Shown here: positions 1 through 10,506 of the stretch, piece by piece
Layout: each line of letters begins with the position of its first letter
How positions within the stretch are numbered: position 1 is the stretch's first letter
Virus record (IMG/VR): IMGVR_UViG_2529292883_000007
Location: 1-10,506 of that record
From: a virus
Lineage: Duplodnaviria > Heunggongvirae > Uroviricota > Caudoviricetes
DNA: 10,506 bases
Direction: 5' to 3' (one strand)
The notes under the pieces: generated by a model
Database searches by the model: none
What the model was told of the DNA's origin: nothing
Seen by the model: the letters and a program-made list of their open reading frames with translations, nothing else
Made by a program: the position numbers and the translations under genes

Positions 1-411
1 TCAAAAAAAGTTTCCCTGATAAAACCCCAGTACACGCTGCACAACTTCGCTCTTCCGGCACTCGCTACAAATTATGTTCAATCTCCTGTCGTAGCGACGT
101 ATTTCTCCGTCAGGTAATGACCAGATAAGGTCCGGATCAACCACAGATGGTTTCTTCACCTTTGCCCTCGAGAGTTTTTTGCGGGCATTTTGCCAGTCCT
201 TACGAGCCTGTTCTGACGGGAATAACCCGTAGCCAGAGTTGTATACATCGCCACTGGCAACCAGCTCTCTGGCCAGAACGCTCATCAGATATCTTGTTGC
301 CCCGGTTTTAGCTTCCTGTTGTCGTAACGTCTCGCGCCCACTCTGGCATACGAGTTCAACAACCTGCCCTTTAATTTTTTCTCGCTCTTCTTGTGTAAAT
401 ACTTTTGCCAT
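1..411 (-). CDS. Hypothetical phage protein, 136 aa, last gene of the leftward early operon
   Basis: Complete ORF on the minus strand (ATG at 411-409, stop TGA at 3-1), 40 nt downstream of the replication gene and co-oriented. No family recognised from the sequence. Confidence 0.45.
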   Translation of the reverse strand: MAKVFTQEEREKIKGQVVELVCQSGRETLRQQEAKTGATRYLMSVLARELVASGDVYNSGYGLFPSEQARKDWQNARKKLSRAKVKKPSVVDPDLIWSLPDGEIRRYDRRLNIICSECRKSEVVQRVLGFYQGNFF

Positions 412-451
412 AAGTCCTCCTGAAAATTACCTCATGACCTGAAATAAACAC

Positions 452-1417
452 TCACCCCCTGAATCCCGGTGGAATTTCGGTATCCGGTTCAGAAACATGA
501 TTCACACAACGCTGCGTCGGACCACGTCCCAGACGAATCACCAGTTCATCCCATTTTTCGCGAAGCTTTGACGGACTCATGATGTTTTTTACCCAGAATG
601 GATCCCGCTGTACCCGACCAAACATTTCGCAAATTTGCCTGTGCGTTCTTCCATCCAGCATCCGCATTGTGCGCACGTCATTGGCCCACGCGGTCCAGTT
701 GGGTTCTTTCGGTCGCGCGATCTCGCCATCATCGCTGGCAGCCTGTTCGTAAAGGCTCACGATTCGTCCCCAGATCCACTGCGCACACACCAAATCTTCC
801 TGGCTGCCCCACTGGCGTTTTTTTGCACTGAACACAACCGCGTCAGGATGTCGGGTTAAAAAATCCTGTTCAGCCGTCTGCGGGTCCGGTTGCGAAGCTT
901 CCGGACGAGAAGTGTTTTTATTCTCTGTAGTAATCTCTGTTGTATTCTCTGTAAGATCATCGGGCCATTTTGACCCGATGACATTGGGTCGTCTTGAACC
1001 AATGGAGCGTGTCATTTTGGCCTCTTCCATCGTGTCATTTTGACCTGATGGAGCGGCGCATTTTGACCTGATGGATTCGCTCAATTTGCCACCATCTAAA
1101 AGCTCGCTCTCGTAATTAATCGTGTAAAAATTAGTCATGTCACGCTTTGATTTATTGAGTTTTTCGCAACGCAAAAGCCCCAGCGTTTTCAGACTTGCAA
1201 ATGCGCGTTTTAACGTTGATTCAGACCAGAACGGAAACTGTTCCAGCCATTGTTCCGTTGTGTTATAAATCCAGCGAACCCCGTCACATTCCATACCGGA
1301 ACCGGTATCTCTCAACCAGTAATGCAGCTGCTGCAACACGATGGCTTCGTTCAGACCAATTTTCATCGCCAGCTGCGTGTTTATAACCAGCGGGCGTTCA
1401 GCAAAAAGGAGCTTCAT
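452..1417 (-). CDS. Putative replication initiation protein (lambda O-like organisation)
   Basis: 321-aa ORF whose ATG (1417-1415) is preceded by a GGGGGAGGGG Shine-Dalgarno. The N-terminal part has a winged-helix-like pattern; the middle of the gene carries iteron-like direct repeats followed by an AT-rich stretch, as in lambda O/ori. It sits after Cro-like and YdaT-like genes as in lambdoid pR operons. Family assignment is from memory only. Confidence 0.6.
   Translation of the reverse strand: MKLLFAERPLVINTQLAMKIGLNEAIVLQQLHYWLRDTGSGMECDGVRWIYNTTEQWLEQFPFWSESTLKRAFASLKTLGLLRCEKLNKSKRDMTNFYTINYESELLDGGKLSESIRSKCAAPSGQNDTMEEAKMTRSIGSRRPNVIGSKWPDDLTENTTEITTENKNTSRPEASQPDPQTAEQDFLTRHPDAVVFSAKKRQWGSQEDLVCAQWIWGRIVSLYEQAASDDGEIARPKEPNWTAWANDVRTMRMLDGRTHRQICEMFGRVQRDPFWVKNIMSPSKLREKWDELVIRLGRGPTQRCVNHVSEPDTEIPPGFRG
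966..1075. repeat. Iteron-like direct repeats (putative origin of replication inside the O-like gene)
   Basis: Two perfect copies of CATTTTGACCTGATGGA at 1036-1052 and 1059-1075, near-copies at 966-982 and 1013-1029, and a degenerate copy around 982-1007, all with about 23-bp spacing. An AT-rich tract lies at 905-958 on the downstream side in the coding orientation; it also holds three 12-13-bp repeats (ATTCTCTGTA-type). Confidence 0.5.
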
Positions 1418-1438
1418 CCCCTCCCCCAGAACACGTTA

Positions 1439-1864
1439 TCAATGCACCACCACGGCATTTCCCGCCGGACCACCACGATTCATCTGATTGAAACCAGCAA
1501 TCACCACCGCGACAAGTTCATCAGCGTCTCGCACCAGTCGTTCATGCGCCTCCACCAGTTCCCGAAAATAAGCGGAACTGTGGCTGCGCATCCTGGCCAC
1601 CAGCGGAGGTGGCATTGCCTTTTCGATCGCTGGTAACAACGCCTGAATTTTTTTCACCGCATCAGGAGTATCTTTCTCCACCCAGCGGAAAATTTTCTGA
1701 GTATTGCGAGCTAGGGCTTCTGGGTGTGAATCGTCGTACAGTTCCGGAAACGTCATACCCAGCTCAAAATAAGCCTGGGTTATTTCAGCCGCCGGAACTT
1801 TTTCACCGTCCGGATACGCCCAGGCATTCATCGCCATGCGGATGTGTTCATGCTTGATTTTCAT
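1439..1864 (-). CDS. ydaT: YdaT-family protein (Rac prophage YdaT-like, CII-like position)
   Basis: 141-aa ORF starting MKIKHEHI..., which I recall as the YdaT N-terminus. Its ATG (1864-1862) overlaps the stop of the upstream Cro-like gene in an ATGA arrangement, implying translational coupling. Confidence 0.6.
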   Translation of the reverse strand: MKIKHEHIRMAMNAWAYPDGEKVPAAEITQAYFELGMTFPELYDDSHPEALARNTQKIFRWVEKDTPDAVKKIQALLPAIEKAMPPPLVARMRSHSSAYFRELVEAHERLVRDADELVAVVIAGFNQMNRGGPAGNAVVVH

Positions 1865-2121
1865 GAATCAACTCCCGCCACTTGCTGTGTGTTAGCCTGA
1901 AACTCAGCAGGCAAGCCGTCGGTTGGGTTGGGATAAATATCAGGGCGAATTTCATGCGGGGTAACTTCCCAGCTCATTAGCTGACATAACGGAATTACCT
2001 GCTTTGGGGGAACGCCAAAGCTAAACCATTGCCAAACAGTCTGTTGAGCGACCCCCATATAACGACCTATTTCAGCTTGAGAGAATTTCTGCCTAATTTT
2101 TTCGCGAGTGCTATCTATCAT
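1861..2121 (-). CDS. Cro/YdaS-like helix-turn-helix regulator
   Basis: 86-aa ORF with an HTH-like segment (SQAEIGRYMGVAQQTVWQW) and a GGAGG Shine-Dalgarno upstream of the ATG at 2121-2119. It is divergent from the repressor gene and first in the leftward operon. Confidence 0.65.
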   Translation of the reverse strand: MIDSTREKIRQKFSQAEIGRYMGVAQQTVWQWFSFGVPPKQVIPLCQLMSWEVTPHEIRPDIYPNPTDGLPAEFQANTQQVAGVDS

Positions 2122-2155
2122 TTTGCCCTCCTCTAAAAACTATAGGCAAAAGACT

Positions 2156-2194
2156 ACAATAAAAAACTGTGCACGATCAACAGTTTTTTATTGT
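2156..2194. promoter_or_regulatory. Operator O1: perfect inverted repeat with 15-bp arms and a 9-bp spacer, in the divergent promoter region
   Basis: ACAATAAAAAACTGT (2156-2170), spacer gcacgatca, ACAGTTTTTTATTGT (2180-2194); the arms are exact reverse complements. On the minus strand a TTGATC -35-like hexamer overlaps the palindrome and faces the Cro-like gene. Confidence 0.55.
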
Positions 2195-2230
2195 GATGCT
2201 TTTAACAGTATTTCCCTGTAAAATTGAACG

Positions 2231-2632
2231 ATGATGAACGCCTTAGAAGTATCTATGTACAGAATCAGCAAGCTTCTCCAAGAAACAGGATGGAGCCAGG
2301 CTGAGCTTGCTCGTAGAATTGGTGTGACACAACAAACTGTTCAACAATGGGTCAGCGGTAAAGCTACACCTAAAGCCTCAAGTTTGGATAAACTGGTTGA
2401 GGTTACAGGGCATCCATTGCATTGGTTTTTATTGCCTCCTGAAGAGGGTGAGCAAATCTTCACCCCTGATACGATGAAAATTGGTCCTCGCCAACGCGAA
2501 CTGCTCCAGGCTTTTAGTGCGTTTCCAGAAGAAGACCAAGAAAAAATGCTTCAGGAAATCAAAGACAAGAAAAAATCAATGGAAGAAACCATTGCTCGAT
2601 GGTTGGCGGCGCAAAAAATCCGCCGAGCGTGA
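2231..2632 (+). CDS. XRE-family HTH repressor (PaaR-like / DicA-analogous prophage repressor)
   Basis: 133-aa ORF with an N-terminal XRE HTH (SQAELARRIGVTQQTVQQWVSG). It is divergent from the Cro-like gene and lies directly upstream of the antitoxin and ParE genes, matching the paaR-paaA-parE three-gene layout as I remember it. Confidence 0.7.
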   Translation: MMNALEVSMYRISKLLQETGWSQAELARRIGVTQQTVQQWVSGKATPKASSLDKLVEVTGHPLHWFLLPPEEGEQIFTPDTMKIGPRQRELLQAFSAFPEEDQEKMLQEIKDKKKSMEETIARWLAAQKIRRA

Positions 2633-2657
2633 CCAGTGAACAAAGAGGAGTCATGTC

Positions 2658-2849
2658 ATGAGTACAGCCCTTTCTCCGATAGTTTCAGAATTCGAAACTA
2701 CCGAACAAGAAAACAGTTACAACGAATGGTTGCGCGCTAAAGTCGCGTCAAGCTTTGCAGATCATCGCCCCGCAATACCGCATGACGAGGTGATGGCTGA
2801 AATGGAAAATCTTATTGCTCAAATTGCTGCGACTAGCGGGAGTGTGTAA
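2658..2849 (+). CDS. PaaA-type small antitoxin (ParE-associated)
   Basis: 63-aa ORF with a GAGGAG Shine-Dalgarno 7 nt upstream. Its stop codon overlaps the start of the ParE reading frame (TAATG at 2847-2851). The sequence (SPIVSEFETTEQENSYNEWLRAKVA...) resembles PaaA-type antitoxins from memory. Confidence 0.6.
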   Translation: MSTALSPIVSEFETTEQENSYNEWLRAKVASSFADHRPAIPHDEVMAEMENLIAQIAATSGSV

Positions 2850-3138
2850 TGCTACCCATTTTATGGCTACCATCTGCTCGCGATGATTTGCGTCAGATCG
2901 TAGCCTATATTGCCAAGGAAAATGTTCCACAGCAGCTCGTAGACTAAAAATACGTATTGAAACGTCTGTTTTAGCCCTCTCAGAGCATCCATATCTATAT
3001 CCGCCAAGTGATAGAGTATCCGGTTTGCGGGAAATTGTAGCTCACCCTAATTATATCGTTTTGTACCGAGTAGCAGCTTCAAGCATTGAAATTGTAAATA
3101 TTGTGCATACCCGCAGACAGTTTCCCTTCCCTGCCTGA
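2849..3138 (+). pseudogene. parE: ParE-family toxin gene disrupted by a frameshift
   Basis: The frame from ATG 2849 encodes a ParE-like N-terminus (MLPILWLPSARDDLRQIVAYIAKENVP...) and stops at TAA 2945-2947. A different frame, open from 2887 to the TGA at 3136-3138, encodes a ParE-like C-terminus (...AARRLKIRIETSVLALSEHPYLYPPSDRVSGLREIVAHPNYIVLYRVAASSIEIVNIVHTRRQFP). The switch point is near 2927-2935. Confidence 0.6.
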
Positions 3139-3156
3139 ACCGAACGATTTTCACAC

Positions 3157-3180
3157 TCCCTCATACGAGGGATTTTTTTT
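3157..3180 (+). terminator. Intrinsic terminator after the repressor-TA operon
   Basis: Stem TCCCTC (3157-3162) / GAGGGA (3167-3172) with loop ATAC, followed by 8 T (3173-3180). Confidence 0.6.
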
Positions 3181-3191
3181 GCCAAAAAACA

Positions 3192-3235
3192 ACAATTAAA
3201 AACTGTTGACACCAAACAGTTTTTAATTGTAGATT
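3192..3235 (+). promoter_or_regulatory. Operator O2 overlapping a rightward early promoter (pL analogue)
   Basis: ACAATTAAAAACTGT (3192-3206), spacer tgacaccaa, ACAGTTTTTAATTGT (3216-3230); perfect 15-bp arms, one base different from O1. A consensus -35 TTGACA (3204-3209) straddles the left arm and spacer; a -10 candidate TAGATT lies at 3230-3235 but the spacing is long, so the exact -10 is uncertain. Confidence 0.55.
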
Positions 3236-3414
3236 GTTTTCACCAGCCCACCCCGTCCCACAGAATGCAGGGCAAAACTTCGAGTTACCAGGCAGTGGTC
3301 AGGGGTTAAGTAGCCAGCCCGAGGCGTATGAACATGACGGCAGGGATCAAATTTAATAACTATGCAGCAGGTTTTTGTTCCGCTACCCCGGCGTTAAGGG
3401 GAAATGAGGTCAAC

Positions 3415-3570
3415 ATGGAAACTATCGATCTTGGCAACAACGAATCTCTGGTGTGCGGTGTGTTTCCCAACCAGGACGGAACGTTCACCGCGATGACGTA
3501 TACAAAAAGCAAAACGTTTAAAACCGAATCTGGCGCGCGTCGTTGGTTGGTAAGACATTCAGGTGAATAA
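3415..3570 (+). CDS. ydfA: YdfA-like small protein (first gene of a dicB-operon-like transcript)
   Basis: 51-aa ORF (METIDLGNNESLV...) with a GAGGT Shine-Dalgarno 5 nt upstream. Its position downstream of the repressor-controlled promoter and upstream of DicF matches the Qin ydfA-ydfB-...-dicF order. An in-frame upstream start at 3328 or 3334 would give a 78-80-aa product and cannot be excluded. Confidence 0.5.
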   Translation: METIDLGNNESLVCGVFPNQDGTFTAMTYTKSKTFKTESGARRWLVRHSGE

Positions 3571-3571
3571 A

Positions 3572-3718
3572 ATGAACGAAACAGAATTAAAACACGTTAT
3601 CGCTCTGCTTCTGGAGGATGCAAAACGCCTCCAGCAACTGGAACCAAATGCAGGCACTGAAGCCCGCATCTGGCTGGCATTGTACGCTATTGAGTCAGGT
3701 CGTGATGATGAAGGTTAA
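3572..3718 (+). CDS. ydfB: YdfB-like small protein
   Basis: 48-aa ORF (MNETELKHVIALLLEDAKRLQQLEPNAGTEARIWLALYAIESGRDDEG), absent from the ORF track because it is under 60 aa. AGGTGA Shine-Dalgarno 5 nt upstream; the ATG is 1 nt after the ydfA-like stop. Confidence 0.45.
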   Translation: MNETELKHVIALLLEDAKRLQQLEPNAGTEARIWLALYAIESGRDDEG

Positions 3719-3999
3719 GCATCATCTAAGTTTTTTACATAGCGCCCATTAGATTCGGTAACAAGAACTCCGGGATTTTTCTTAACTTTTGAGGCCACTG
3801 ATTCAGCAAGGTTAGCAACAGATTCTTTGTCTTCATTCTTGCTTGAATATGTATATTCGGCATTAGGAAGTCGGTAGGTGTTCCCTGAAGAGGTTGTAAT
3901 CGTTCTGGAGAATCCCTTTGCTTCCATTCGTTCATGAAGCTTATCGTAATCAGCGGAACTGGAATCGCGAAGTTCGATCCTGACTGTAAATTTTGCCAT
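3715..3999 (-). CDS. Hypothetical 94-aa protein, convergent to the early operon
   Basis: ATG at 3999-3997 preceded by a strong GGAGGATAAA Shine-Dalgarno (the longer track ORF starts inside this SD, so the 94-aa form is preferred). Its stop overlaps the ydfB-like stop by 4 bp (TTAA at 3715-3718). Non-repetitive, protein-like composition; family not recognised. Confidence 0.6.
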   Translation of the reverse strand: MAKFTVRIELRDSSSADYDKLHERMEAKGFSRTITTSSGNTYRLPNAEYTYSSKNEDKESVANLAESVASKVKKNPGVLVTESNGRYVKNLDDA

Positions 4000-4335
4000 T
4001 TTATCCTCCATTAAGGGCTGAATTAAAAATGGAGACCAACACGCTGCTACGTGTGGTCGTGCGCCGGACACGGATAAGAATCCGGCACTGACAGTTTACT
4101 GAAAGGATATTTCCCTGAAAAGTCAGGGCATAACACGAAAGCGTACGGCGAAGGCCTTCACCTATGAGGTTTGTCGTTAAATTTCTTCGACCGTGCGCTT
4201 CCGGTTGTGGCACTCCGCGAAATGGCGCGGTGGTAAGTATGGCGGGGTTATTCCTTCCCCCGTTGAGGACACCGGGTTGTCAGGTTGACCATACACTTAA
4301 GTGACAACCCCGCTGCAACGCCCTCTGTTATCAAT

Positions 4336-4393
4336 TTTCTGGTGACGTTTGGCGGTATCAGTTTTACTCCGTGACTGCTCTGCCGCCCTTTTT
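4336..4393 (+). ncRNA. dicF: DicF small RNA (ftsZ-targeting prophage sRNA) with its 3' terminator hairpin
   Basis: TTTCTGGTGACGTTTGGCGGTATCAGTTTTACTCCGTGACTGCTCTGCCGCCC followed by TTTTT matches my recollection of the DicF sequence. It ends in a GGCGG...CCGCC hairpin plus a U-run, and lies downstream of ydfA/ydfB-like genes as in Qin. Confidence 0.7.
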
Positions 4394-4801
4394 AAAGTGA
4401 ATTTTGTGATGTGGTGAATGCGGCTAAGCGCACGCGGAACAGTTAAAAAAAATATTGTTATGGGTGGATTCTCTGTATCCGGCGTTAATTGTTAACTGGT
4501 TAACGTCACCTGGAGGCACCAGGCACCACATCAACAAAGTTTATTTAATTATGCGCGAATTAACCGTTATTCGTGCAGGGGATTTCTACACCTGAAATCC
4601 ACAGTTCTTTAATAATATGGATCGGGCTGTCACGTAAACCACAATTCGGGGTGCCGCCGAATGCCCTGATATATCCGCGGAACCGGAACACAGGGTCGGG
4701 ATGTGATTTTTTGAGCAAACCAAACTGGTGGCTTCCGACACTTGCGAGAAGTCCAAATTTAGACTAAATTATGACTAAATTTAACGACAAGGCCGTACTT
4801 C

Positions 4802-5035
4802 ATGAAAATAGAAACTATCAGCTACATCAAGAAAAACGCAGCCTCACTGGACCTGGCTGAACCAATTCTTGTCACGCAGAATGGTGTTCCTGCATACGTA
4901 ATTGAATCCTATGAGCAGCAACAGGAACGCGAGAATGCTATTGCGTTACTGAAACTTCTCACTATTTCAGAAAGTGACAGGTCTGAAGGCCGCGTGTTTT
5001 CAAAAGAACAGTTGCTGGATAGCTTTAACAAGTAA
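4802..5035 (+). CDS. Phd/YefM-family antitoxin
   Basis: 77-aa ORF (MKIETISYIKKNAASLDLAEPILVTQNGVPAYVIESYEQQQERENAIALLKLL...) with the Phd/YefM pattern. The toxin ORF follows 8 nt after its stop. Confidence 0.7.
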   Translation: MKIETISYIKKNAASLDLAEPILVTQNGVPAYVIESYEQQQERENAIALLKLLTISESDRSEGRVFSKEQLLDSFNK

Positions 5036-5043
5036 GGTTGACG

Positions 5044-5364
5044 ATGCAGATTGAATACACGCTTACCGCCAGAACAAGCCTTGAGCAAATTGCCGACCAT
5101 CTCCGGAGTAACGACATTGACCCACTCCCTGTAATAGAAGAAATTCTTGAACGATTTGAAACAAGAGTTACGGCATTCCCGTCCGGATGCCAGTTATGCC
5201 CGGAGTTGCTCAAACTTGGCGTGGCGAAATATAGAGAATGCAACACACCAGAAGGTTACAGAGTGCTGTACTCTGTAGAAGGGGATGTTATCACTGCACA
5301 CGCGGTTCTTTCCCAACGTCAGGATATTAAACAGTTACTGTTCAGGCGACTGATTAGAGCTTAG
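5044..5364 (+). CDS. RelE/ParE-superfamily toxin (putative)
   Basis: 106-aa ORF from ATG 5044 (the track begins at an in-frame TTG at 5038), with AAGG 6 nt upstream. ParE/RelE-like pattern (conserved N-terminal helix, and YRVLYSVEGDVITAHAVL near the C-terminus). Lies directly downstream of the Phd/YefM antitoxin. Confidence 0.55.
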   Translation: MQIEYTLTARTSLEQIADHLRSNDIDPLPVIEEILERFETRVTAFPSGCQLCPELLKLGVAKYRECNTPEGYRVLYSVEGDVITAHAVLSQRQDIKQLLFRRLIRA

Positions 5365-5382
5365 CAATCACAAATTCAGTAC

Positions 5383-5411
5383 CCCCTGTTCCCCCAAGTT
5401 CAGGGGTTTTT
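5383..5411 (+). terminator. Intrinsic terminator after the TA pair
   Basis: Stem CCCCTG (5383-5388) / CAGGGG (5401-5406) with a 12-nt loop, followed by TTTTTGCTTTT. Confidence 0.5.
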
Positions 5412-5426
5412 GCTTTTCTGAGGGTG

Positions 5427-5455
5427 TTGACGCTGGGAACTGTCAGGGGTATATT
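5427..5455 (+). promoter_or_regulatory. Near-consensus sigma70-type promoter upstream of rha
   Basis: -35 TTGACG (5427-5432), 17-nt spacer, -10 TATATT (5450-5455); predicted transcription start around 5462. Confidence 0.5.
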
Positions 5456-5510
5456 TTGTCCGCACCTCATAAAACGGGTGCCGGGCGTGGAAACCCGATG
5501 TTCACTAACG

Positions 5511-5543
5511 CGCATAACCGCGCTCAGGCGGTTTTTTTATGCG
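5511..5543 (+). terminator. Terminator/attenuator hairpin within the rha leader
   Basis: Inner stem CCGC (5518-5521) / GCGG (5528-5531) with loop GCTCAG, followed by 7 T (5532-5538). An outer stem CGCATAA (5511-5517) / TTATGCG (5537-5543) could alternatively sequester part of the U-run. It sits about 55-80 nt downstream of the predicted start. Confidence 0.45.
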
Positions 5544-5707
5544 TAATGCACAGCCACATTCAGATTATGGTGGGACGTGCAGGGCAGCCGCAAGGCTGGC
5601 CGGGTTCGTTAGTGACCGGTATTTCCACCCCTGTACGTCTCACCACCCTTATGGTCGTGGAAAACCTTGGTGGTGAGTTAATCAAATTCACTAACGAGGC
5701 TGCTATC

Positions 5708-6262
5708 ATGGCTACTATCCCTACCCTTTCTCACCCTGACGTAACCATCAAAAATGGTCGCGCTGTCACTACGTCTGTTGCGGTTGCAGAGTTCTTCCGC
5801 AAAATGCACAAGGACGTTTTGCGCAAAATTGAAACGCTAGAATGCTCTGAAGATTTTAACGAGCGCAATTTTACGCCCGTTACCTACACCGACGCCAAAG
5901 GCGAAAAACGACCAATGTACCAAATCACCAAAAACGGCTTCGTTTTCCTGGTGATGGGGTTCACCGGCAAAAAAGCCGCAGCTTTCAAGGAAGCCTACAT
6001 CGCTGAATTCGATCGCATGGAGGCAGAGTTGTACCAGCTTAATACCACTACCACAGACAAAATAATTCCTGGTGATGGTCGCACTCTCGTTGTTCACTTC
6101 GACGAACGCGGCAATATCAAATTCACCGAAACCGTTCCTGACGGCGCTCTCGTCTGTACTCTGGATACTTTCCGCTTTTATCTGGAGAAGCAGGGGTGGA
6201 CTCTTGTAAACAGGAGCGCAATTAAAAATATGACCGTCGAGCAGTTGCTGAGTATTAAATAG
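5708..6262 (+). CDS. rha: Rha-family phage regulatory protein
   Basis: 184-aa ORF from ATG 5708 with a GAGG Shine-Dalgarno 8 nt upstream. The N-terminus (KNGRAVTTSVAVAEFFRKMHKDVLRKIETL...YQITKNGFVFLVMGFTGKKAAAFKEAYIAEFDRME) matches the Rha domain pattern. The track's longer 268-aa ORF starts at a TTG inside the promoter -10 and is not preferred. Confidence 0.7.
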   Translation: MATIPTLSHPDVTIKNGRAVTTSVAVAEFFRKMHKDVLRKIETLECSEDFNERNFTPVTYTDAKGEKRPMYQITKNGFVFLVMGFTGKKAAAFKEAYIAEFDRMEAELYQLNTTTTDKIIPGDGRTLVVHFDERGNIKFTETVPDGALVCTLDTFRFYLEKQGWTLVNRSAIKNMTVEQLLSIK

Positions 6263-6308
6263 TTTTCTGGAATTTTCTTAATGCGACAAATTTATTAAGG
6301 AGATAATT

Positions 6309-6530
6309 ATGATTGCTCATCACTTCGGAACTGATGATATTCCTCGTCAGTGCGTGACTCCCGGTGATTATGTTATTCATAAAGGAAGAACATATATTGC
6401 TTCGGTAAACAATATTAAAAAACACCGGCTCTATATTCGTGATTTTTCCACACAACACTGTATTAATGAAACCATGATTAAAGTCTTCCTTGATCGTGAT
6501 GGTTTACCTGTAAAGGCGGAGTCGTGGTGA
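6309..6530 (+). CDS. Small protein, possibly KilR-like (Rac cell-division inhibitor family)
   Basis: 73-aa ORF with a strong AAGGAG Shine-Dalgarno 6 nt upstream, in a locally AT-rich segment. The KilR assignment rests on its length, its position next to the recE-like gene and a tentative recollection of the KilR sequence. Confidence 0.5.
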
Positions 6531-6647
6531 GCTGTAATAAAATAACTACCCCAATACGACATTCAGTTTAATAAATACATCAGATTCGATTCTTATATGC
6601 CAGCAATGGCAGTGATTTGTTCACCCCTAAATCTGTAATGAGGTTTA

Positions 6648-9086
6648 TTGATGAGCACGAATAAAGAACTGTTTGCGCTATATTGCGAAGCTAAAAATGA
6701 CAAGGTCAGAAAGCGTCTCGGTATTAAAGGTGGCTTTTTCTGGATCGAAGCCAAAAAACTTTCCGTTGCAGTTTCCCGCTGTATTGCCGCTATGGACGAT
6801 GCTGGCTACGACGAAGATGATTTCAAAAAAACAGTTCGCGTCCATTTGCCTGTTGTAAATGACCTGCCACCTGAAGGCGTATTTGATACTGATTTCTGTA
6901 ACCGTTACGAAAAAGGTGGAGAAGATGGCATCACAATGATGCCGGTACCGTCCAGCAACAGCGATGAAAACAGTAACGCCGCTAATACTAACGTCAACGG
7001 CGAAGACATGACTGAGATTGAGGAGAATATGCTTCTGCCGGTTTCAGGTCAGCTTCTGCCTGTTAGATGGCTGGCACAGCACGGCAGCGAAAAACCTGTC
7101 ACGCATGTTTCACGGGATGAACTGCGGGCATTACATAACGCACAGGAAGAAAAACTTCCCGCCGTTACCGCTCTGGCCATCTCAAATAAAGCAGTGCAAC
7201 TCGAACCGCTGGAGATTCGGGATTTGTACAAACTGGTGCGGGACACTGACAAAGTTTTTCCCGCCCCCGTAAATTCAGACCTGGGACTGATGACTTCCTT
7301 CATCGAAGCATACCTGGACGCTGACTACACCAATCGCGGTCTGCTTACAAAAGAGTGGATGAAAGGAAATCATGTTTCGCGAATCAGCCGCACACCATCC
7401 GGCGCTAACGCTGGCGGCGGTATTCTTACCGATCGCGGCGAAGGTTTTGTACACGATGATGCATCACTGGCGCGCGACGTAGCCACTGGCGTGCTGGCCC
7501 GTTCAATGGACGTGGACATTTATAACCTTCATCCGGCACACGCTAAACGCGTCGAGGAAATTATCGCTGAAAATAAACCGCCCTTTTCTGTTTTCTTCAG
7601 CAAATTCATCACCATGCCGGGCCACAAGGATTTCTCCCGTGCCATCGTGGTTGCCTCCGTGAAAGAAGCACCAGTTGGTATAGAGGCTATGCCCCACCGT
7701 GTCACCGAATACCTGAATAAGGTGCTGACTGAAACCGATCATGCCAACCCTGATCCGGAAATCGTGGATATTGCCTGCGGTCGCTCCTCTGCCCCGATGC
7801 CGCAGCGTGTAACGGAAAAAGAAAAACATGATGAAGAAAAACCGCAACCATCTGGCGCAATGGCAGATGAACAGGCAACGGCTGAAACAGTGGAACCGGA
7901 TGCAACTGAACATCATCCGGACACGCAGCCGGTGGATGCTCAGCCACAGGTGAATTCTGTTGATGCGAAATATCAGAAACTGCGGGCAGAACTCCATGAA
8001 GCCAGGAAAAACATTTCGCCTAAAAATCCTGTCGACGCAAACAAATTACTGGCCGCCTCTCGCGGAGAATTTGTTGAAGGGATTAGTGACCCGAATGATC
8101 CGAAATGGGTTAAGGGGCACCAGACTCGCGAGTCTTCGAACCAGAATCAACCAGAAGTGGAACAAACCAGGTCAGAATCGGGACAAAATAGCCAGGATGC
8201 ACACCAAAATGAACCAAAAACGATACATCCGGAGCCAGCAGCGCAACATGCACAGAAAAATCCCTGTAATGTTTGTGGGGAAACTGGCGGGGGCACATGC
8301 CCTGACTGTGCCTCAGTAATGGGTGACGCAACTTACCATGAGACATTCTGCGAGGAAGATTCAGATGAATCTCAGGAAAAAGCTCCGGAGGAGATGGAAA
8401 ACCCTGAACATCCGCATCCGGAAAATACTGACAGCAATCAGCATAACAATAGCGGTGATAAAACTGACAGGACGACAAATTCCTTAATTAATATGTACGG
8501 TTATAAGAAAAGAACATCCACCAGCAGAATGTGTCACCATCTGATGATCGACCTTGAAACAATGGGAAAAAATCCTGATTCCCCGATTATCTCAATAGGT
8601 GCAATATTTTTCGATCCGCAAACCGGAGAGATGGGACCAGAATTTAATAAAACCATCGATCTGGAAACTGCTGGCGGAGTCATTGATCGGGACGCGATCA
8701 AGTGGTGGCTGAAGCAATCACGCGAAGCGCAATCTGCCATTCTGACCGATGAAATCCCGTTAGATGATGCACTGCTGCAATTGCGGGAATTTATCGCCGA
8801 AAACTCCGGTGAATTGTTTGTTCAGGTCTGGGGAAATGGAGCCAACTTCGACAACGTGATTTTGCGCCGTTCATATGAACGGCAGGGTATCCCCTGCCCG
8901 TGGCGCTACTACAACGATCGCGATGTACGCACAATCATTGAACTGGGAAAATCCATAGACTTCGATGCCAGGACGCCTATTCAATTCGAAGGCATACGCC
9001 ACAATGCGCTGGATGATGCCCGTCACCAGGCGAAATACGTTTCAGCAATCTGGCAAAAACTGATCCCGAATCAGTCTGATTTTTAA
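6648..9086 (+). CDS. Large prophage exonuclease: RecE-like N-terminal/central region fused to a C-terminal DEDDh (DnaQ/RNase T-like) 3'-5' exonuclease domain
   Basis: 812-aa ORF with GAGG 8 nt upstream. The C-terminal domain has the three DEDDh motifs: Exo I MIDLETMG, Exo [14 protein letters not shown], Exo [15 protein letters not shown] CxxC-x7-CxxC motif ([15 protein letters not shown]) and an acidic, Pro/Gln/Glu-rich low-complexity segment lie between the N-terminal region and the nuclease domain. It occupies the exo/recE position upstream of xis-int. Confidence 0.75.
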
Positions 9087-9149
9087 TGTTCAACCCCAGT
9101 CGTCGCCCCCAGCTATAGTGGCGGCGACCATGATTAGCGAACGATACTC

Positions 9150-9398
9150 ATGGCAAGACTTATTCTGCTCACTGAGTGGGCAAAAGAGGAATTCAGCGAT
9201 CCGGTCCCTACTCCGGGCACGTTAAGTAAATACGCTAAAGCCGGAATGATATTTCCTCTCCCCAAAAAAGTTGGAAGACACTGGCGAGTGGATCCGCGAG
9301 CTCGCTTTGTCGGAATGGTAAACAAGCCGGAGGTGATCGCCACAGATCATCCTGCTTTAAAGAGGATACTGGAAGATGGCACGCCCGCGAAAATATAA
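9150..9398 (+). CDS. xis: Excisionase (Xis-like)
   Basis: 82-aa ORF immediately upstream of int, with its 3' end overlapping the int start by 23 nt as in lambda xis/int. The sequence (LTEWAKEEF...MIFPLPKKVGRHWRVDP) resembles excisionase-family proteins. Confidence 0.65.
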   Translation: MARLILLTEWAKEEFSDPVPTPGTLSKYAKAGMIFPLPKKVGRHWRVDPRARFVGMVNKPEVIATDHPALKRILEDGTPAKI

Positions 9399-10506
9399 AA
9401 CCGCTGTTCCGGGATTATCTCCGTATTTTGACAAAAGAAATAACAAAGTTTACTGGCGTTACAGGCATCCCATCACAGGTAAAAATCATGGACTCGGCAG
9501 TATTGACCAGAAACTGGCGGAAACCATTGCAGCAGAAGCGAACAGCCGTCTTGCCAGACAACAAATGGAGCAAATGCTCAGTCTGCAGGAGAAAATTATT
9601 AGTGATACCGGCGGCGCATCAACCGTTTCCATTTTTCTGAATAATTACAGAAAAATTCAACAGGAAAGATATGAGAACGGAGAGATCAAACTCAGCACGC
9701 TGAAGCAAAAAGCGGCTCCTCTCAGGGTGTTTGATGAACGTTTTGGAGCCAGGCCGCTAGATGCCATAACCGTAAAAGATGTGGTATCAGTGCTGGAAGA
9801 ATACAAGGCAAAGGGACATAACAGAATGGGACAAATTTTCAGGAAGGTCTTGATCGATGTTTTCCGGGAGGCTCAACAAACGGGTGATGTCCCGCCAGGC
9901 TTTAACCCGGCTGAATCGGCAAAAAAACCGCAAGTGCGGATATCAAGACAGCGACTGACTTTTGATGAGTGGATGATGATTTATAACGCAGCGGAAAAGG
10001 ATGGTTACTTTTTACAGCGCGGCATGCTGCTGGCTCTGATGACGGGCCAGCGTCTTTCGGATATTTGCAAAATGCAGTTTTCGGATATCCGGGATGGTTA
10101 CCTTCATGTCGAACAGCAAAAAACAGGAGCCCGGATAGCCATTCCTCTGGCTCTGCGTTGCGACAAATTAAATCGTACCCTGGGTGACGTGGTGTCATCC
10201 TGTCGTGATTACATCCTTAGTCCGTGGTTATTGCACCATCATCACGCTAAGGGGATGGGTAAGCGCGGCGGGATGGTTAAACCAGCAACGTTAACAGTCG
10301 CATTTAAAAAAGCCCGGGATTCTGTGGATTACAACTGGCGTGCTAATGGCACGCCACCCTCTTTCCATGAGCAAAGATCTTTATCAGAACGATTGTTCAG
10401 AGAACAGGGAATTGATACCAAAATTTTGCTGGGTCATTCGAATCAAAAAATGACCGATATTTACAACGATGCACGCGGTAAGGAGTGGAAAAAACTGGTC
10501 ATTTGA
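9376..10506 (+). CDS. int: Lambda-family tyrosine integrase
   Basis: 376-aa ORF with clear similarity to lambda Int as I recall it: RLTFDEWMMIYNAAEKDGYF / MTGQRLSDICKMQFSDIRDGYLHVEQQKTGARIAIPLAL and the C-terminal PPSFHEQRSLSERLF...LLGHSNQKMTDIYNDARGKEWKKL, including the catalytic R...HxxR...Y arrangement. The stop is at the window edge, so the att site should lie just downstream of the window. Confidence 0.9.
   Translation: MARPRKYKTAVPGLSPYFDKRNNKVYWRYRHPITGKNHGLGSIDQKLAETIAAEANSRLARQQMEQMLSLQEKIISDTGGASTVSIFLNNYRKIQQERYENGEIKLSTLKQKAAPLRVFDERFGARPLDAITVKDVVSVLEEYKAKGHNRMGQIFRKVLIDVFREAQQTGDVPPGFNPAESAKKPQVRISRQRLTFDEWMMIYNAAEKDGYFLQRGMLLALMTGQRLSDICKMQFSDIRDGYLHVEQQKTGARIAIPLALRCDKLNRTLGDVVSSCRDYILSPWLLHHHHAKGMGKRGGMVKPATLTVAFKKARDSVDYNWRANGTPPSFHEQRSLSERLFREQGIDTKILLGHSNQKMTDIYNDARGKEWKKLVI

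Follow-up and report, generated by a model that had tools for sequence, protein, structure and literature searches.

Do the direct repeats lying in the middle of a phage replication gene form an origin, as the iterons of ori-lambda do inside gene O, or do they reflect the peptide encoded there? This question is raised by a minus-strand gene at positions 452-1417 of the virus record IMGVR_UViG_2529292883_000007 (Caudoviricetes, IMG/VR), of which positions 1-10,506 were analysed; 'the window' denotes here this whole stretch of 10,506 nucleotides (nt). We consider, with a probability of roughly 85%, that a lambdoid (mEp460/Rac-like) prophage has its replication origin at 884-1096, in the part of this O-like initiator gene that encodes a linker. 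The locus is lambda-like in its architecture and C-terminal domain only: since the N-terminal domain of its product has no homology with that of lambda O and no P-like gene is present, the initiator is not a lambda O orthologue. The lambda-type layout is already known; what is new is the N-terminal domain and the iteron sequence, which come from a family not annotated as such.

Iterons and 12-mers inside an O-like initiator gene

The gene was delineated by the open reading frame (ORF) call, by the profile phrog_391 and by BLASTP to lambda O:

452-1417, minus strand: O-like replication initiator gene, 321 amino acids (aa).

Its product, labelled 'hypothetical protein' in RefSeq, matches phrog_391 ('replication initiation O-like', PHROGs) over its full length (E 8e-96; aa 18-321 on profile positions 13-298 of 298). 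The initial annotation, made from the sequence, had placed the repeats in the middle of a replication initiator gene, and this location is upheld. The alignment to lambda O that it suggested reveals homology of the C-terminal domain, residues 135-270 of lambda O aligning with aa 147-294 of the initiator (34% identity, E 1e-27; BLASTP). GenBank J02459 served as reference for both lambda O and ori-lambda.

Four to five direct repeats of about 17 base pairs (bp), spaced by about 23 bp, had been announced, two of them identical. Five clear copies and a degenerate sixth are present, the five clear ones as 23-nt units (958-980, 982-1004, 1005-1027, 1028-1050 and 1051-1073) at a spacing of 24, 23, 23 and 23 nt (repeat search). 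The identical pair is exact: CATTTTGACCTGATGGA, of 17 nt, is present in two copies only, at 1036-1052 and 1059-1075, and none of 200 shuffles matched this. Allowing up to 2 mismatches, the core GTCATTTTGACC is matched 8 times in the window for 1.31 expected (0/200 shuffles reached 8), 4 of these matches lying within the array. Tandem Repeats Finder (TRF) reports a period of 23 at 1035-1088 and a period of 12 at 922-953, and no other repeat cluster elsewhere in the window. In gene orientation, the units are the following:

1051-1073, minus strand: iteron 1, CATCAGGTCAAAATGCGCCGCTC, frame 0.
1028-1050, minus strand: iteron 2, CATCAGGTCAAAATGACACGATG, frame 2.
1005-1027, minus strand: iteron 3, GAAGAGGCCAAAATGACACGCTC, frame 1, found as a separate repeat family.
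982-1004, minus strand: iteron 4, CATTGGTTCAAGACGACCCAATG, frame 0, with the most diverged core.
958-980, minus strand: iteron 5, CATCGGGTCAAAATGGCCCGATG, frame 0, the best palindrome (11-nt arms, 91% complementary).
1074-1096, minus strand: iteron 6, degenerate, ..GGCAAATTGAGC.., at the promoter-proximal end of the array.

The iterons share a dyad, with a GGTCA-AAA-TGACC core around an A-tract and longer outer arms CATCnGG...CCnGATG. At the position of the degenerate sixth copy, the alignment shows a good copy, GAGGTCAAAGTGA(A/C)C, in mEp460_4F5 and in a Klebsiella phage, and six-copy chains are found in relatives L093-L100. The five iterons start at codons 115, 122, 130, 138 and 146 and occupy codons 115-153 (108-153 with the degenerate sixth), the repeat tract as a whole lying at codons 115-171 of the ORF.

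Downstream of the iterons in the sense of the gene, three further elements follow one another:

919-954, minus strand: three tandem 12-mers ACAGAGAnTACw (TATTCTCTGTAG, TAATCTCTGTTG and TATTCTCTGTAA), in frame, encoding TENT/TEIT/TENK.
910-918, minus strand: A-run TAAAAACAC, directly after the 12-mers; an A-run also follows the 12-mers in the Stx-phage O gene.
884-906, no strand: inverted repeat GTCCGG-N11-CCGGAC, the low third-position diversity described below reaching window position 887.

With at most one mismatch, ACAGAGAnTAC has 4 matches in the window, as compared to 0.29 expected, and the 12-mers are unchanged in 58 close homologues but for two positions. They coincide with the 40-bp duplex of lowest stability in the gene, 915-954 (free energy, dG, -44.3 against a mean of -55.6, standard deviation 3.8; 99th percentile of the 10.5-kb window). 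We propose this tract as the DNA-unwinding element, or the helicase-entry side, of the origin.

The inverted repeat that comes next corresponds to the palindrome which, in lambda, lies to the right of the AT-rich tract. In Enterobacterales relatives (L093-L128) it reads GTCCGGTTGC-N3-GCAACCnGAC, and a compensatory variant GGTTTC/GAAACC exists. A perfect 6-bp inverted repeat follows the 12-mers in 33/57 cases, against 14% of control 60-nt windows. In the present copy the inner arm carries two mismatches, AAGC replacing TTGC.

Some other elements were considered for the region and rejected. DnaA boxes with at most one mismatch are absent in and near the gene, and their total count is that expected by chance. 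No Rfam family reaches its gathering threshold in 452-1417. A promoter or terminator within the repeat tract was also discarded, the only terminator-like site in 400-2300 being at 1596-1613 (consensus scan).

Constraint on the repeats and on their half-sites

Close homologues were taken from IMG/VR and from phage and E. coli collections (82, giving 58 unique sequences). Among the unique sequences, diversity at third codon positions falls from 0.155 outside 905-1075 to 0.025 within it (Mann-Whitney p 3e-8), whereas first- and second-position diversity is not reduced inside this region and is, if anything, higher; the ratio of third to first-plus-second diversity is thus 0.8 inside and 5.9 outside. 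Because diversity collapses at third positions and not at the first two, selection in 905-1075 acts on the DNA. The constrained zone extends from about 1100 to 887, taking in the iterons, the 12-mers and the 884-906 inverted repeat.

One could suppose that the repeats are a by-product of a repetitive linker peptide and have no function as DNA. Linkers often hold low-complexity peptides, the present one is predicted to be disordered, its iteron-coding segment included (AlphaFold), and the 12-mers are in frame, giving the related peptides TENT, TEIT and TENK. The five iterons, however, lie in frames 0, 2, 1, 0 and 0 and encode unrelated peptides; occurring in three reading frames, they are repeats of DNA and not of peptide, and the collapse of third-position diversity alone is equally at odds with a peptide by-product. 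For the 12-mers, codon usage was examined on repeats defined by their peptide (TE.T), a sample unbiased as to codon choice. In these repeats Thr is encoded by ACA in 103/105 cases, against 339/1382 elsewhere (p 1.5e-55), and Glu by GAG in 103/105, against 794/1734 elsewhere (p 5e-31). Moreover, variation in the 12-mer falls on the second base of codon 3 and on the third base of codon 4, a pattern which is not synonymous. Fixation of the ACA and GAG codons together with non-synonymous variable sites implies that the DNA string ACAGAGA-n-TAC-w, and not the peptide, is conserved. A peptide by-product is therefore extremely improbable in our opinion, and we retain DNA repeats belonging to an origin. 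The initial annotation had itself envisaged a strain-specific artefact of the encoded peptide; the reading frames of the iterons dispose of the peptide, the persistence of the repeats in homologues and distant relatives disposes of strain specificity, and the relationship of the protein to replication initiators disposes of the supposed lack of such homology.

The four parts of the initiator protein are needed to follow the comparison with these relatives:

aa ~8-105: winged-helix-like N-terminal domain (N-domain).
aa ~110-177: disordered linker.
aa ~180-296: lambda-O-like C-terminal domain (C-domain).
aa 298-321: DnaT-like tail.

This division follows an AlphaFold model built on a 25-sequence alignment, in which the predicted local distance difference test (pLDDT) is 75-88 at aa 10-105, about 28 at aa 110-177 and 60-84 at aa 180-296. 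The sequences of that alignment came from a search with the full-length protein; a search with the N-domain only gave only fragments shorter than 200 aa. The N-domain is modelled as a helix/strand fold with a winged-helix-like order of elements, and the C-domain as helical (aa 183-296). Cross-hits among PHROGs tie the N-domain to phrog_6493, 428 and 270.

Distant relatives were obtained by an N-domain alignment scan retaining one genome per species, which gave 79 full-length proteins with 48-97% N-domain identity. At least three approximate repeats at 21-25-bp spacing are present in 54 of the 79, every array starting at gene nt 312-438, and in 2/237 codon-shuffled controls. Array-bearing relatives come from Escherichia, Citrobacter, Pantoea, Yersinia, Pseudomonas, Acinetobacter, Campylobacterales, Thiothrix and a Bacteroidota metagenome-assembled genome, and also from Staphylococcus, Bacillus and relatives, and Limosilactobacillus. 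Place and spacing of the iterons are conserved in this set; the half-site sequences differ. Around a constant CA-WWW-TG centre the two arms vary jointly (GGTCA/TGACC, GGGCA/TGCCC, GGACA/TGTCC, GTGCA/TGCAC, GTTCA/TGAAC and GATCA/TGATC), so that, as judged from these alignments, the arms of the iteron palindrome change compensatorily between clades.

Among all columns of the N-domain alignment, residue 67, at the start of a predicted helix (66-79), is the best predictor of the half-site class. It pairs with the base 5' of CA as Ser with T (17/20), Lys or Arg with A (7/7) and Asp with G (15/16); Ser67 goes with T in both the GT and TT classes, Asp67 with G in both the GG and TG classes, and the pairing recurs in distant lineages. 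Such a pattern is as expected of a recognition-helix contact, the association being only suggestive because the compared sequences share descent.

Several observations weigh against the proposal of an origin bound by this protein. With a mean pLDDT of 62, the structural model has only modest overall confidence. In the PDB (Foldseek), the N-domain finds weak fold matches (E of at least 0.13, hence none at E <= 0.001), all to generic winged-helix DNA-binding proteins, for which reason no family was assigned from the fold. A Pfam search of the initiator protein returned no family at E <= 0.01, and comparison of the N-domain profile with lambda O aa 1-164 gave an hhalign probability of 0.04%. The tract at 905-958, initially described as AT-rich with three 12-13-bp repeats, does contain the three 12-mers at 919-954, but its AT content is moderate, 70% over 918-957 as compared to 50% in the gene. 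A consensus scan of 400-2300 detected no sigma-70-like promoter, and a P, DnaC-like or DnaB-like gene is absent behind the initiator in this locus as in E. coli 2013C-4465 and mEp460_ev081. In addition, 25/79 relatives have no 21-25-bp chain by the detector used, and since all relatives share descent, neither the counts nor the residue-67 association represent independent events.

The relatives with no detectable array at that place would fit iterons serving regulation, that is autorepression, copy-number handcuffing or a transcription roadblock, with the true origin elsewhere; plasmid iterons also have control functions. Against this stands the company that the array keeps: the least stable tract always accompanies it, as does the inverted repeat in enterobacterial relatives, in the same order as in the proven ori-lambda. 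Its codon position is that of lambda, TRF detects no second repeat cluster in the window, and the arrangement persists across phyla. A purely regulatory array is thus very unlikely, and we continue to regard 884-1096 as the probable origin.

The 12-mers across initiator families and the DnaT-like tail

Klebsiella phages match the window over 919-1360 only, which covers N-domain, iterons and 12-mers, and have a different C-domain. Conversely, E. coli strain 105, like many other genomes, matches 441-918 only, i.e. the C-domain; strain 105 has a different N-domain and, at the same place, an array of 15-bp period (TCAACnGTTGA / TCAAAnTTTGA). From these mosaics, a specificity module made of N-domain plus iterons and a C-terminal module are exchanged as units, with the joint at or just after the 12-mers. 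This shared inheritance of N-domain and iterons, like the pairing of residue 67 with the half-site base, lends indirect support to binding of the iterons by the N-domain. The 40 bp at 919-958 are moreover 97.5% identical to a Stx2a-phage 'O' gene (L002, 1501-1540), the two proteins otherwise aligning over the linker only. This segment is a candidate module-exchange point, the mosaic joints falling at or just after it. In another relative (L217, 590-1936, minus strand), an HNH endonuclease domain (aa 175-225) is inserted in frame between the N-terminal domain and the iteron/12-mer region.

The position of the joints in the Klebsiella phages and in strain 105, as well as the sharing of 919-958 by otherwise unrelated Stx-phage O genes, could mean that the 12-mer tract is mainly a homologous-recombination 'linker' for swaps of N- and C-terminal modules rather than an unwinding element. 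Second-order selection of this kind is nevertheless unlikely to fix a 10-of-12-nt motif in phages from Staphylococcus and Bacillus to Escherichia, and the tract is the thermodynamic minimum of the gene, placed as the unwinding tract of lambda. The two roles are compatible; we find it unlikely that recombination is the main one, and keep the 12-mers as the proposed unwinding side of the origin.

The 79 relatives were selected on their N-domain only, and 59 of them have at least two tandem ACAGAGA motifs spaced by 12 nt, 38 at least three. They always read ACA GAG, and the last iteron precedes them by 20-35 nt. The pattern CAGAGA-N6-CAGAGA-N6-CAGAGA, searched in IMG/VR, gave at least 120 loci. 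Among the 120 matches listed, 100 lie in the reading frame of an ORF of 150 aa or more, for the most part at residues 100-190, and ten representatives of these listed matches are all (10/10) phage replication initiators by PHROG. Their types are diverse: O-like, DnaD-like, replisome organizer PF09681, DUF1376 and DUF6291. In a winged-helix cluster comprising 71/100 among the matches listed, 3-6 iterons at exactly 23-bp spacing precede the 12-mers, and the iteron sequences are wholly different between subfamilies. The DUF1376/PF09681 tracts, mostly (GAGACA)n runs, were not equated with the ordered 12-mer, nor were a few non-initiator low-complexity ORFs also caught by the scan counted as such. 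A literature text search with the iteron and 12-mer sequences, of open-access scope and thus weak evidence of novelty, returned only unrelated primer matches, and literature searches on oriJ/Rac and on phage replication modules yielded nothing on the present initiator family.

At the DNA level ACAGAGAnTACw is constant from Escherichia phages to those of Staphylococcus and Bacillus, thus in initiator genes from both Gram-negative and Gram-positive hosts, despite differing iterons, N-domains and C-domains, and it is always found 13-35 nt beyond an array of iterons spaced by 23 bp. We tentatively suggest, as a possibility that we hold for less than even, that the 12-mers are a sequence-specific origin element and not a generic AT-rich unwinding tract, and that the PPGFRG tail of the initiator is the matching docking motif for host helicase loading. 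Should this be true, something common to all these systems would read ACAGAGAnTACw, and the conserved 12-mer raises the question of what this reader is. Candidates are a conserved initiator surface that touches one of the unwound strands, a universal replication factor of the host, or an R-loop formed by the purine-rich transcript. The shared DnaT-like tail would then explain a replicon without its own loader gene.

This tail corresponds to the last codons of the gene:

455-526, minus strand: tail-coding region, aa 298-321, RGPTQRCVNHVSEPDTEIPPGFRG, matching the very end of host DnaT.

The last 24 residues (...VSEPDTEIPPGFRG) match DnaT in the PDB (phmmer; 6aep, 2ru8 and 9zbt, E 0.003-0.011), and this is the only match in that by-sequence search for solved-structure relatives of the initiator. 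The NCBIfam DnaT profile NF002770 scores 17.4 bits for a cut-off of 201, the match being confined to profile positions 158-179 and to the last 22-24 residues. The initiator was thus rejected as a DnaT (primosomal protein I), the tail alone and not the full length being similar; the public label 'Primosomal protein I' of the mEp460 gene probably rests on this DnaT-like tail. The same ...IPPGFRG ending is found on K-12 YdaU (DUF1376; L087, 3421-3477) and on the strain-105 protein, and a Klebsiella-phage protein with a different C-domain ends in the variant VPAGFRS.

The C-terminal domain of DnaT docks on PriA and forms a filament on single-stranded DNA, and DnaT is proposed to recruit DnaB/DnaC; no role is assigned there to its last residues (PMC13377028). 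We propose the PPGFRG tail as a possible short motif by which the initiator would dock on the helicase-loading machinery of the host. Behind the strain-105 protein that has the same C-terminal domain lies a gene for a DnaC-like ATPase (L088, 1759-2499). In mEp460_ev081 (L001, 3571-3972) and E. coli 2013C-4465, it is a DUF977/Ren-like gene that directly follows the initiator, as here.

Likeness to known origins and state of the prophage

Both ori-lambda and the present origin lie in the linker-coding middle of the initiator gene, the lambda iterons (39034-39118) corresponding to O codons 117-145 and the present ones to codons 115-153, with an iteron spacing of about 20-24 bp. Both iterons are palindromes around an A-tract, TCCCTC-AAAAC-GAGGGA in lambda and GGTCA-AAA-TGACC here. 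The least stable 40 bp of lambda O, at 39122 (dG -43.0 against a gene mean of -54.7), come directly after the last iteron, as here, and an inverted repeat follows the unstable tract in both (GTCAGAG...CTCTGAC in lambda, 884-906 here). The initiators share a homologous C-terminal domain, and their genes stand behind cro- and cII-like genes in one operon. Unlike lambda, with its four iterons and its plain A/T-rich run, the present origin has five to six iterons of a different sequence and three ordered 12-mers on the unwinding side. The N-domain was excluded as a homologue of the lambda O N-domain (Phage_rep_O type), the N-terminal 115 residues having no Pfam or hhalign similarity; the present locus differs from lambda as well by the DnaT-like tail of the protein, which lambda O lacks, and by the absence of a neighbouring P gene. 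The pathway in lambda goes from O to P and then to host DnaB. The arrangement of lambda gene O, initially invoked for this locus, thus holds as to codon position, order of the elements and C-domain homology, and fails as to the N-domain.

In lambdoid phages, iterons and an AT-rich tract make up the origin, which lies midway in gene O; AT-rich DNA in single-stranded form is bound by O as well (PMC7466680). The origins of Stx phages P27 and 933W use a lambda-type O and have six iterons, the distal ones weaker, with an AT-rich tract after them (PMC7466680). The present origin resembles these two by its sixth, promoter-proximal copy, which is also degenerate; however, the O proteins of P27 and 933W are near-identical to lambda O and the present initiator is not. 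A closer analogue is a second kind of Stx-phage 'O' (L002/L216, MRPSDLL...), in which other 23-bp iterons are followed by the same ACAGAGAnTAC 12-mers.

In the RepA_N family, the origin and its iterons lie inside the rep gene. Gram-positive plasmid initiators of this family (pSK41/pTZ2162 RepA) and the present protein both have a winged-helix N-terminal domain, with no sequence similarity between them. The plasmid RepA N-terminal domains 4pql, 4pt7 and 5kbj are indeed among the fold matches of the N-domain (E 0.37-0.88, template modelling score about 0.5 on the target), and these matches, devoid of sequence similarity, are no better than those to many transcription factors. The Rac prophage of E. 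coli K-12 (ydaS-ydaT-ydaU-ydaV-ydaW), the site of oriJ, has the same operon layout, with Cro/YdaS-like, YdaT-like, initiator and DUF977/YdaW-like genes. Similarity of the Rac YdaU (DUF1376) to the present initiator is limited to the last 19 residues; the DnaC-like YdaV follows it, and its internal repeats are different and weaker. Finally, among replisome organizer and DnaD-like initiators (Phage_rep_org_N; PHROGs 6493, 10469 and 428), those caught by the 12-mer pattern also have repeats upstream of a CAGAGA-type tract in the linker region. The PF09681/DUF1376 examples mostly have a (GAGACA)n hexamer run and upstream repeats of 11-bp period, unlike the present 12-mers and 23-bp iterons.

Comparative data and the analogy with ori-lambda lead us to the following model. 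Dimers of the winged-helix N-domain would bind the five to six dyad-symmetric iterons (GGTCA/TGACC, 23-bp spacing) and build an O-some-like complex. Strain in this complex, probably together with transcription of the operon through the site, would then open the least stable tract with its three 12-mers. More speculatively, the lambda-O-like C-domain and the PPGFRG tail would recruit the host helicase-loading machinery. We infer all three steps, with a confidence that falls from iteron binding to opening of the 12-mers and then to helicase recruitment.

The genes around the initiator are the following:

1861-2121, minus strand: Cro/YdaS-like gene, upstream in the same operon (Pfam, PHROGs).
1439-1864, minus strand: CII/YdaT-like gene, upstream in the same operon (Pfam, PHROGs).
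1-411: DUF977/Ren-like gene, the next gene after the initiator.

A CI-like repressor gene is divergent from the initiator operon, and the divergent control region is at 2122-2230. Judging by its genes, this layout is the early-right operon of a lambdoid prophage, and gene order suggests that transcription from the divergent control region would cross the origin.

Early regions of the Rac/mEp460 type, which the window resembles, are common in E. coli chromosomes: the window finds matches in 3,432/5,426 complete E. coli genomes, the best of which has 95% identity over the gene, and Escherichia albertii and IMG/VR loci reach 97-98% protein identity, so that the window may originate from an Escherichia other than E. 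coli or from a close relative. As many such prophages are defective and no helicase-loader gene is present here, the locus could be a decayed relic of a cryptic prophage that has lost replication. But the ORF is full-length, its 966 nt being kept in 82/82 close homologues, and purifying selection on the DNA is evident. Three viable phages (mEp460_ev081, HannyBb and PhiR42_1) have this gene too, 90% identical in nt, and their origin is nearly the same; that of mEp460_ev081, which also has no loader gene, differs from the window's at only a few positions. Decay was judged within the 10.5-kb window, where nothing argues for it. A relic is on these grounds rather unlikely, although it keeps some weight, and the replicon is probably functional, given an intact gene and intact origin elements that are nearly the same as in viable phages.

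Relatives of the initiator are also carried by records of about 42-44 kb filed as plasmids, NZ_CP081704.1 (43,680 bp, circular), NZ_CP081794.1 and NZ_CP095244.1. In NZ_CP081704.1 the relative lies amid phage genes and no typed plasmid replicon is present. These records are probably circular phage genomes caught in assemblies.

An origin at this place would define the replicon of prophages that form a very common group in E. coli and Enterobacterales. It would provide a cis/trans pair, aa 1-110 and the GGTCA-AAA-TGACC iterons, with residue 67 as candidate for specificity. It also suggests that the prophage origin can still fire, which bears on induction, on amplification of neighbouring genes and on incompatibility of co-resident lambdoid prophages. 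Furthermore, 23-bp iterons followed by ACAGAGAnTAC 12-mers could serve as a signature for finding origins in uncharacterised phage genomes.

Elsewhere in the window, Rfam identifies DicF RNA (4337-4388, 76.7 bits), isrK (5462-5538, 65.9 bits) and C4 antisense RNA (5563-5650, 80.3 bits), the last two at the start of an Ash/Rha-family ORF (5456-6262). A 118-aa minus-strand ORF (3715-4071) has a weak Pfam match to GhoS, an endoribonuclease antitoxin (E 3e-4, 21.1 bits for a cut-off of 21). An 812-aa ORF (6648-9086) joins an Exonuc_VIII (RecE-like) N-terminal region to a C-terminal Rv2179c-like 3'-5' exoribonuclease domain (E 4e-66).

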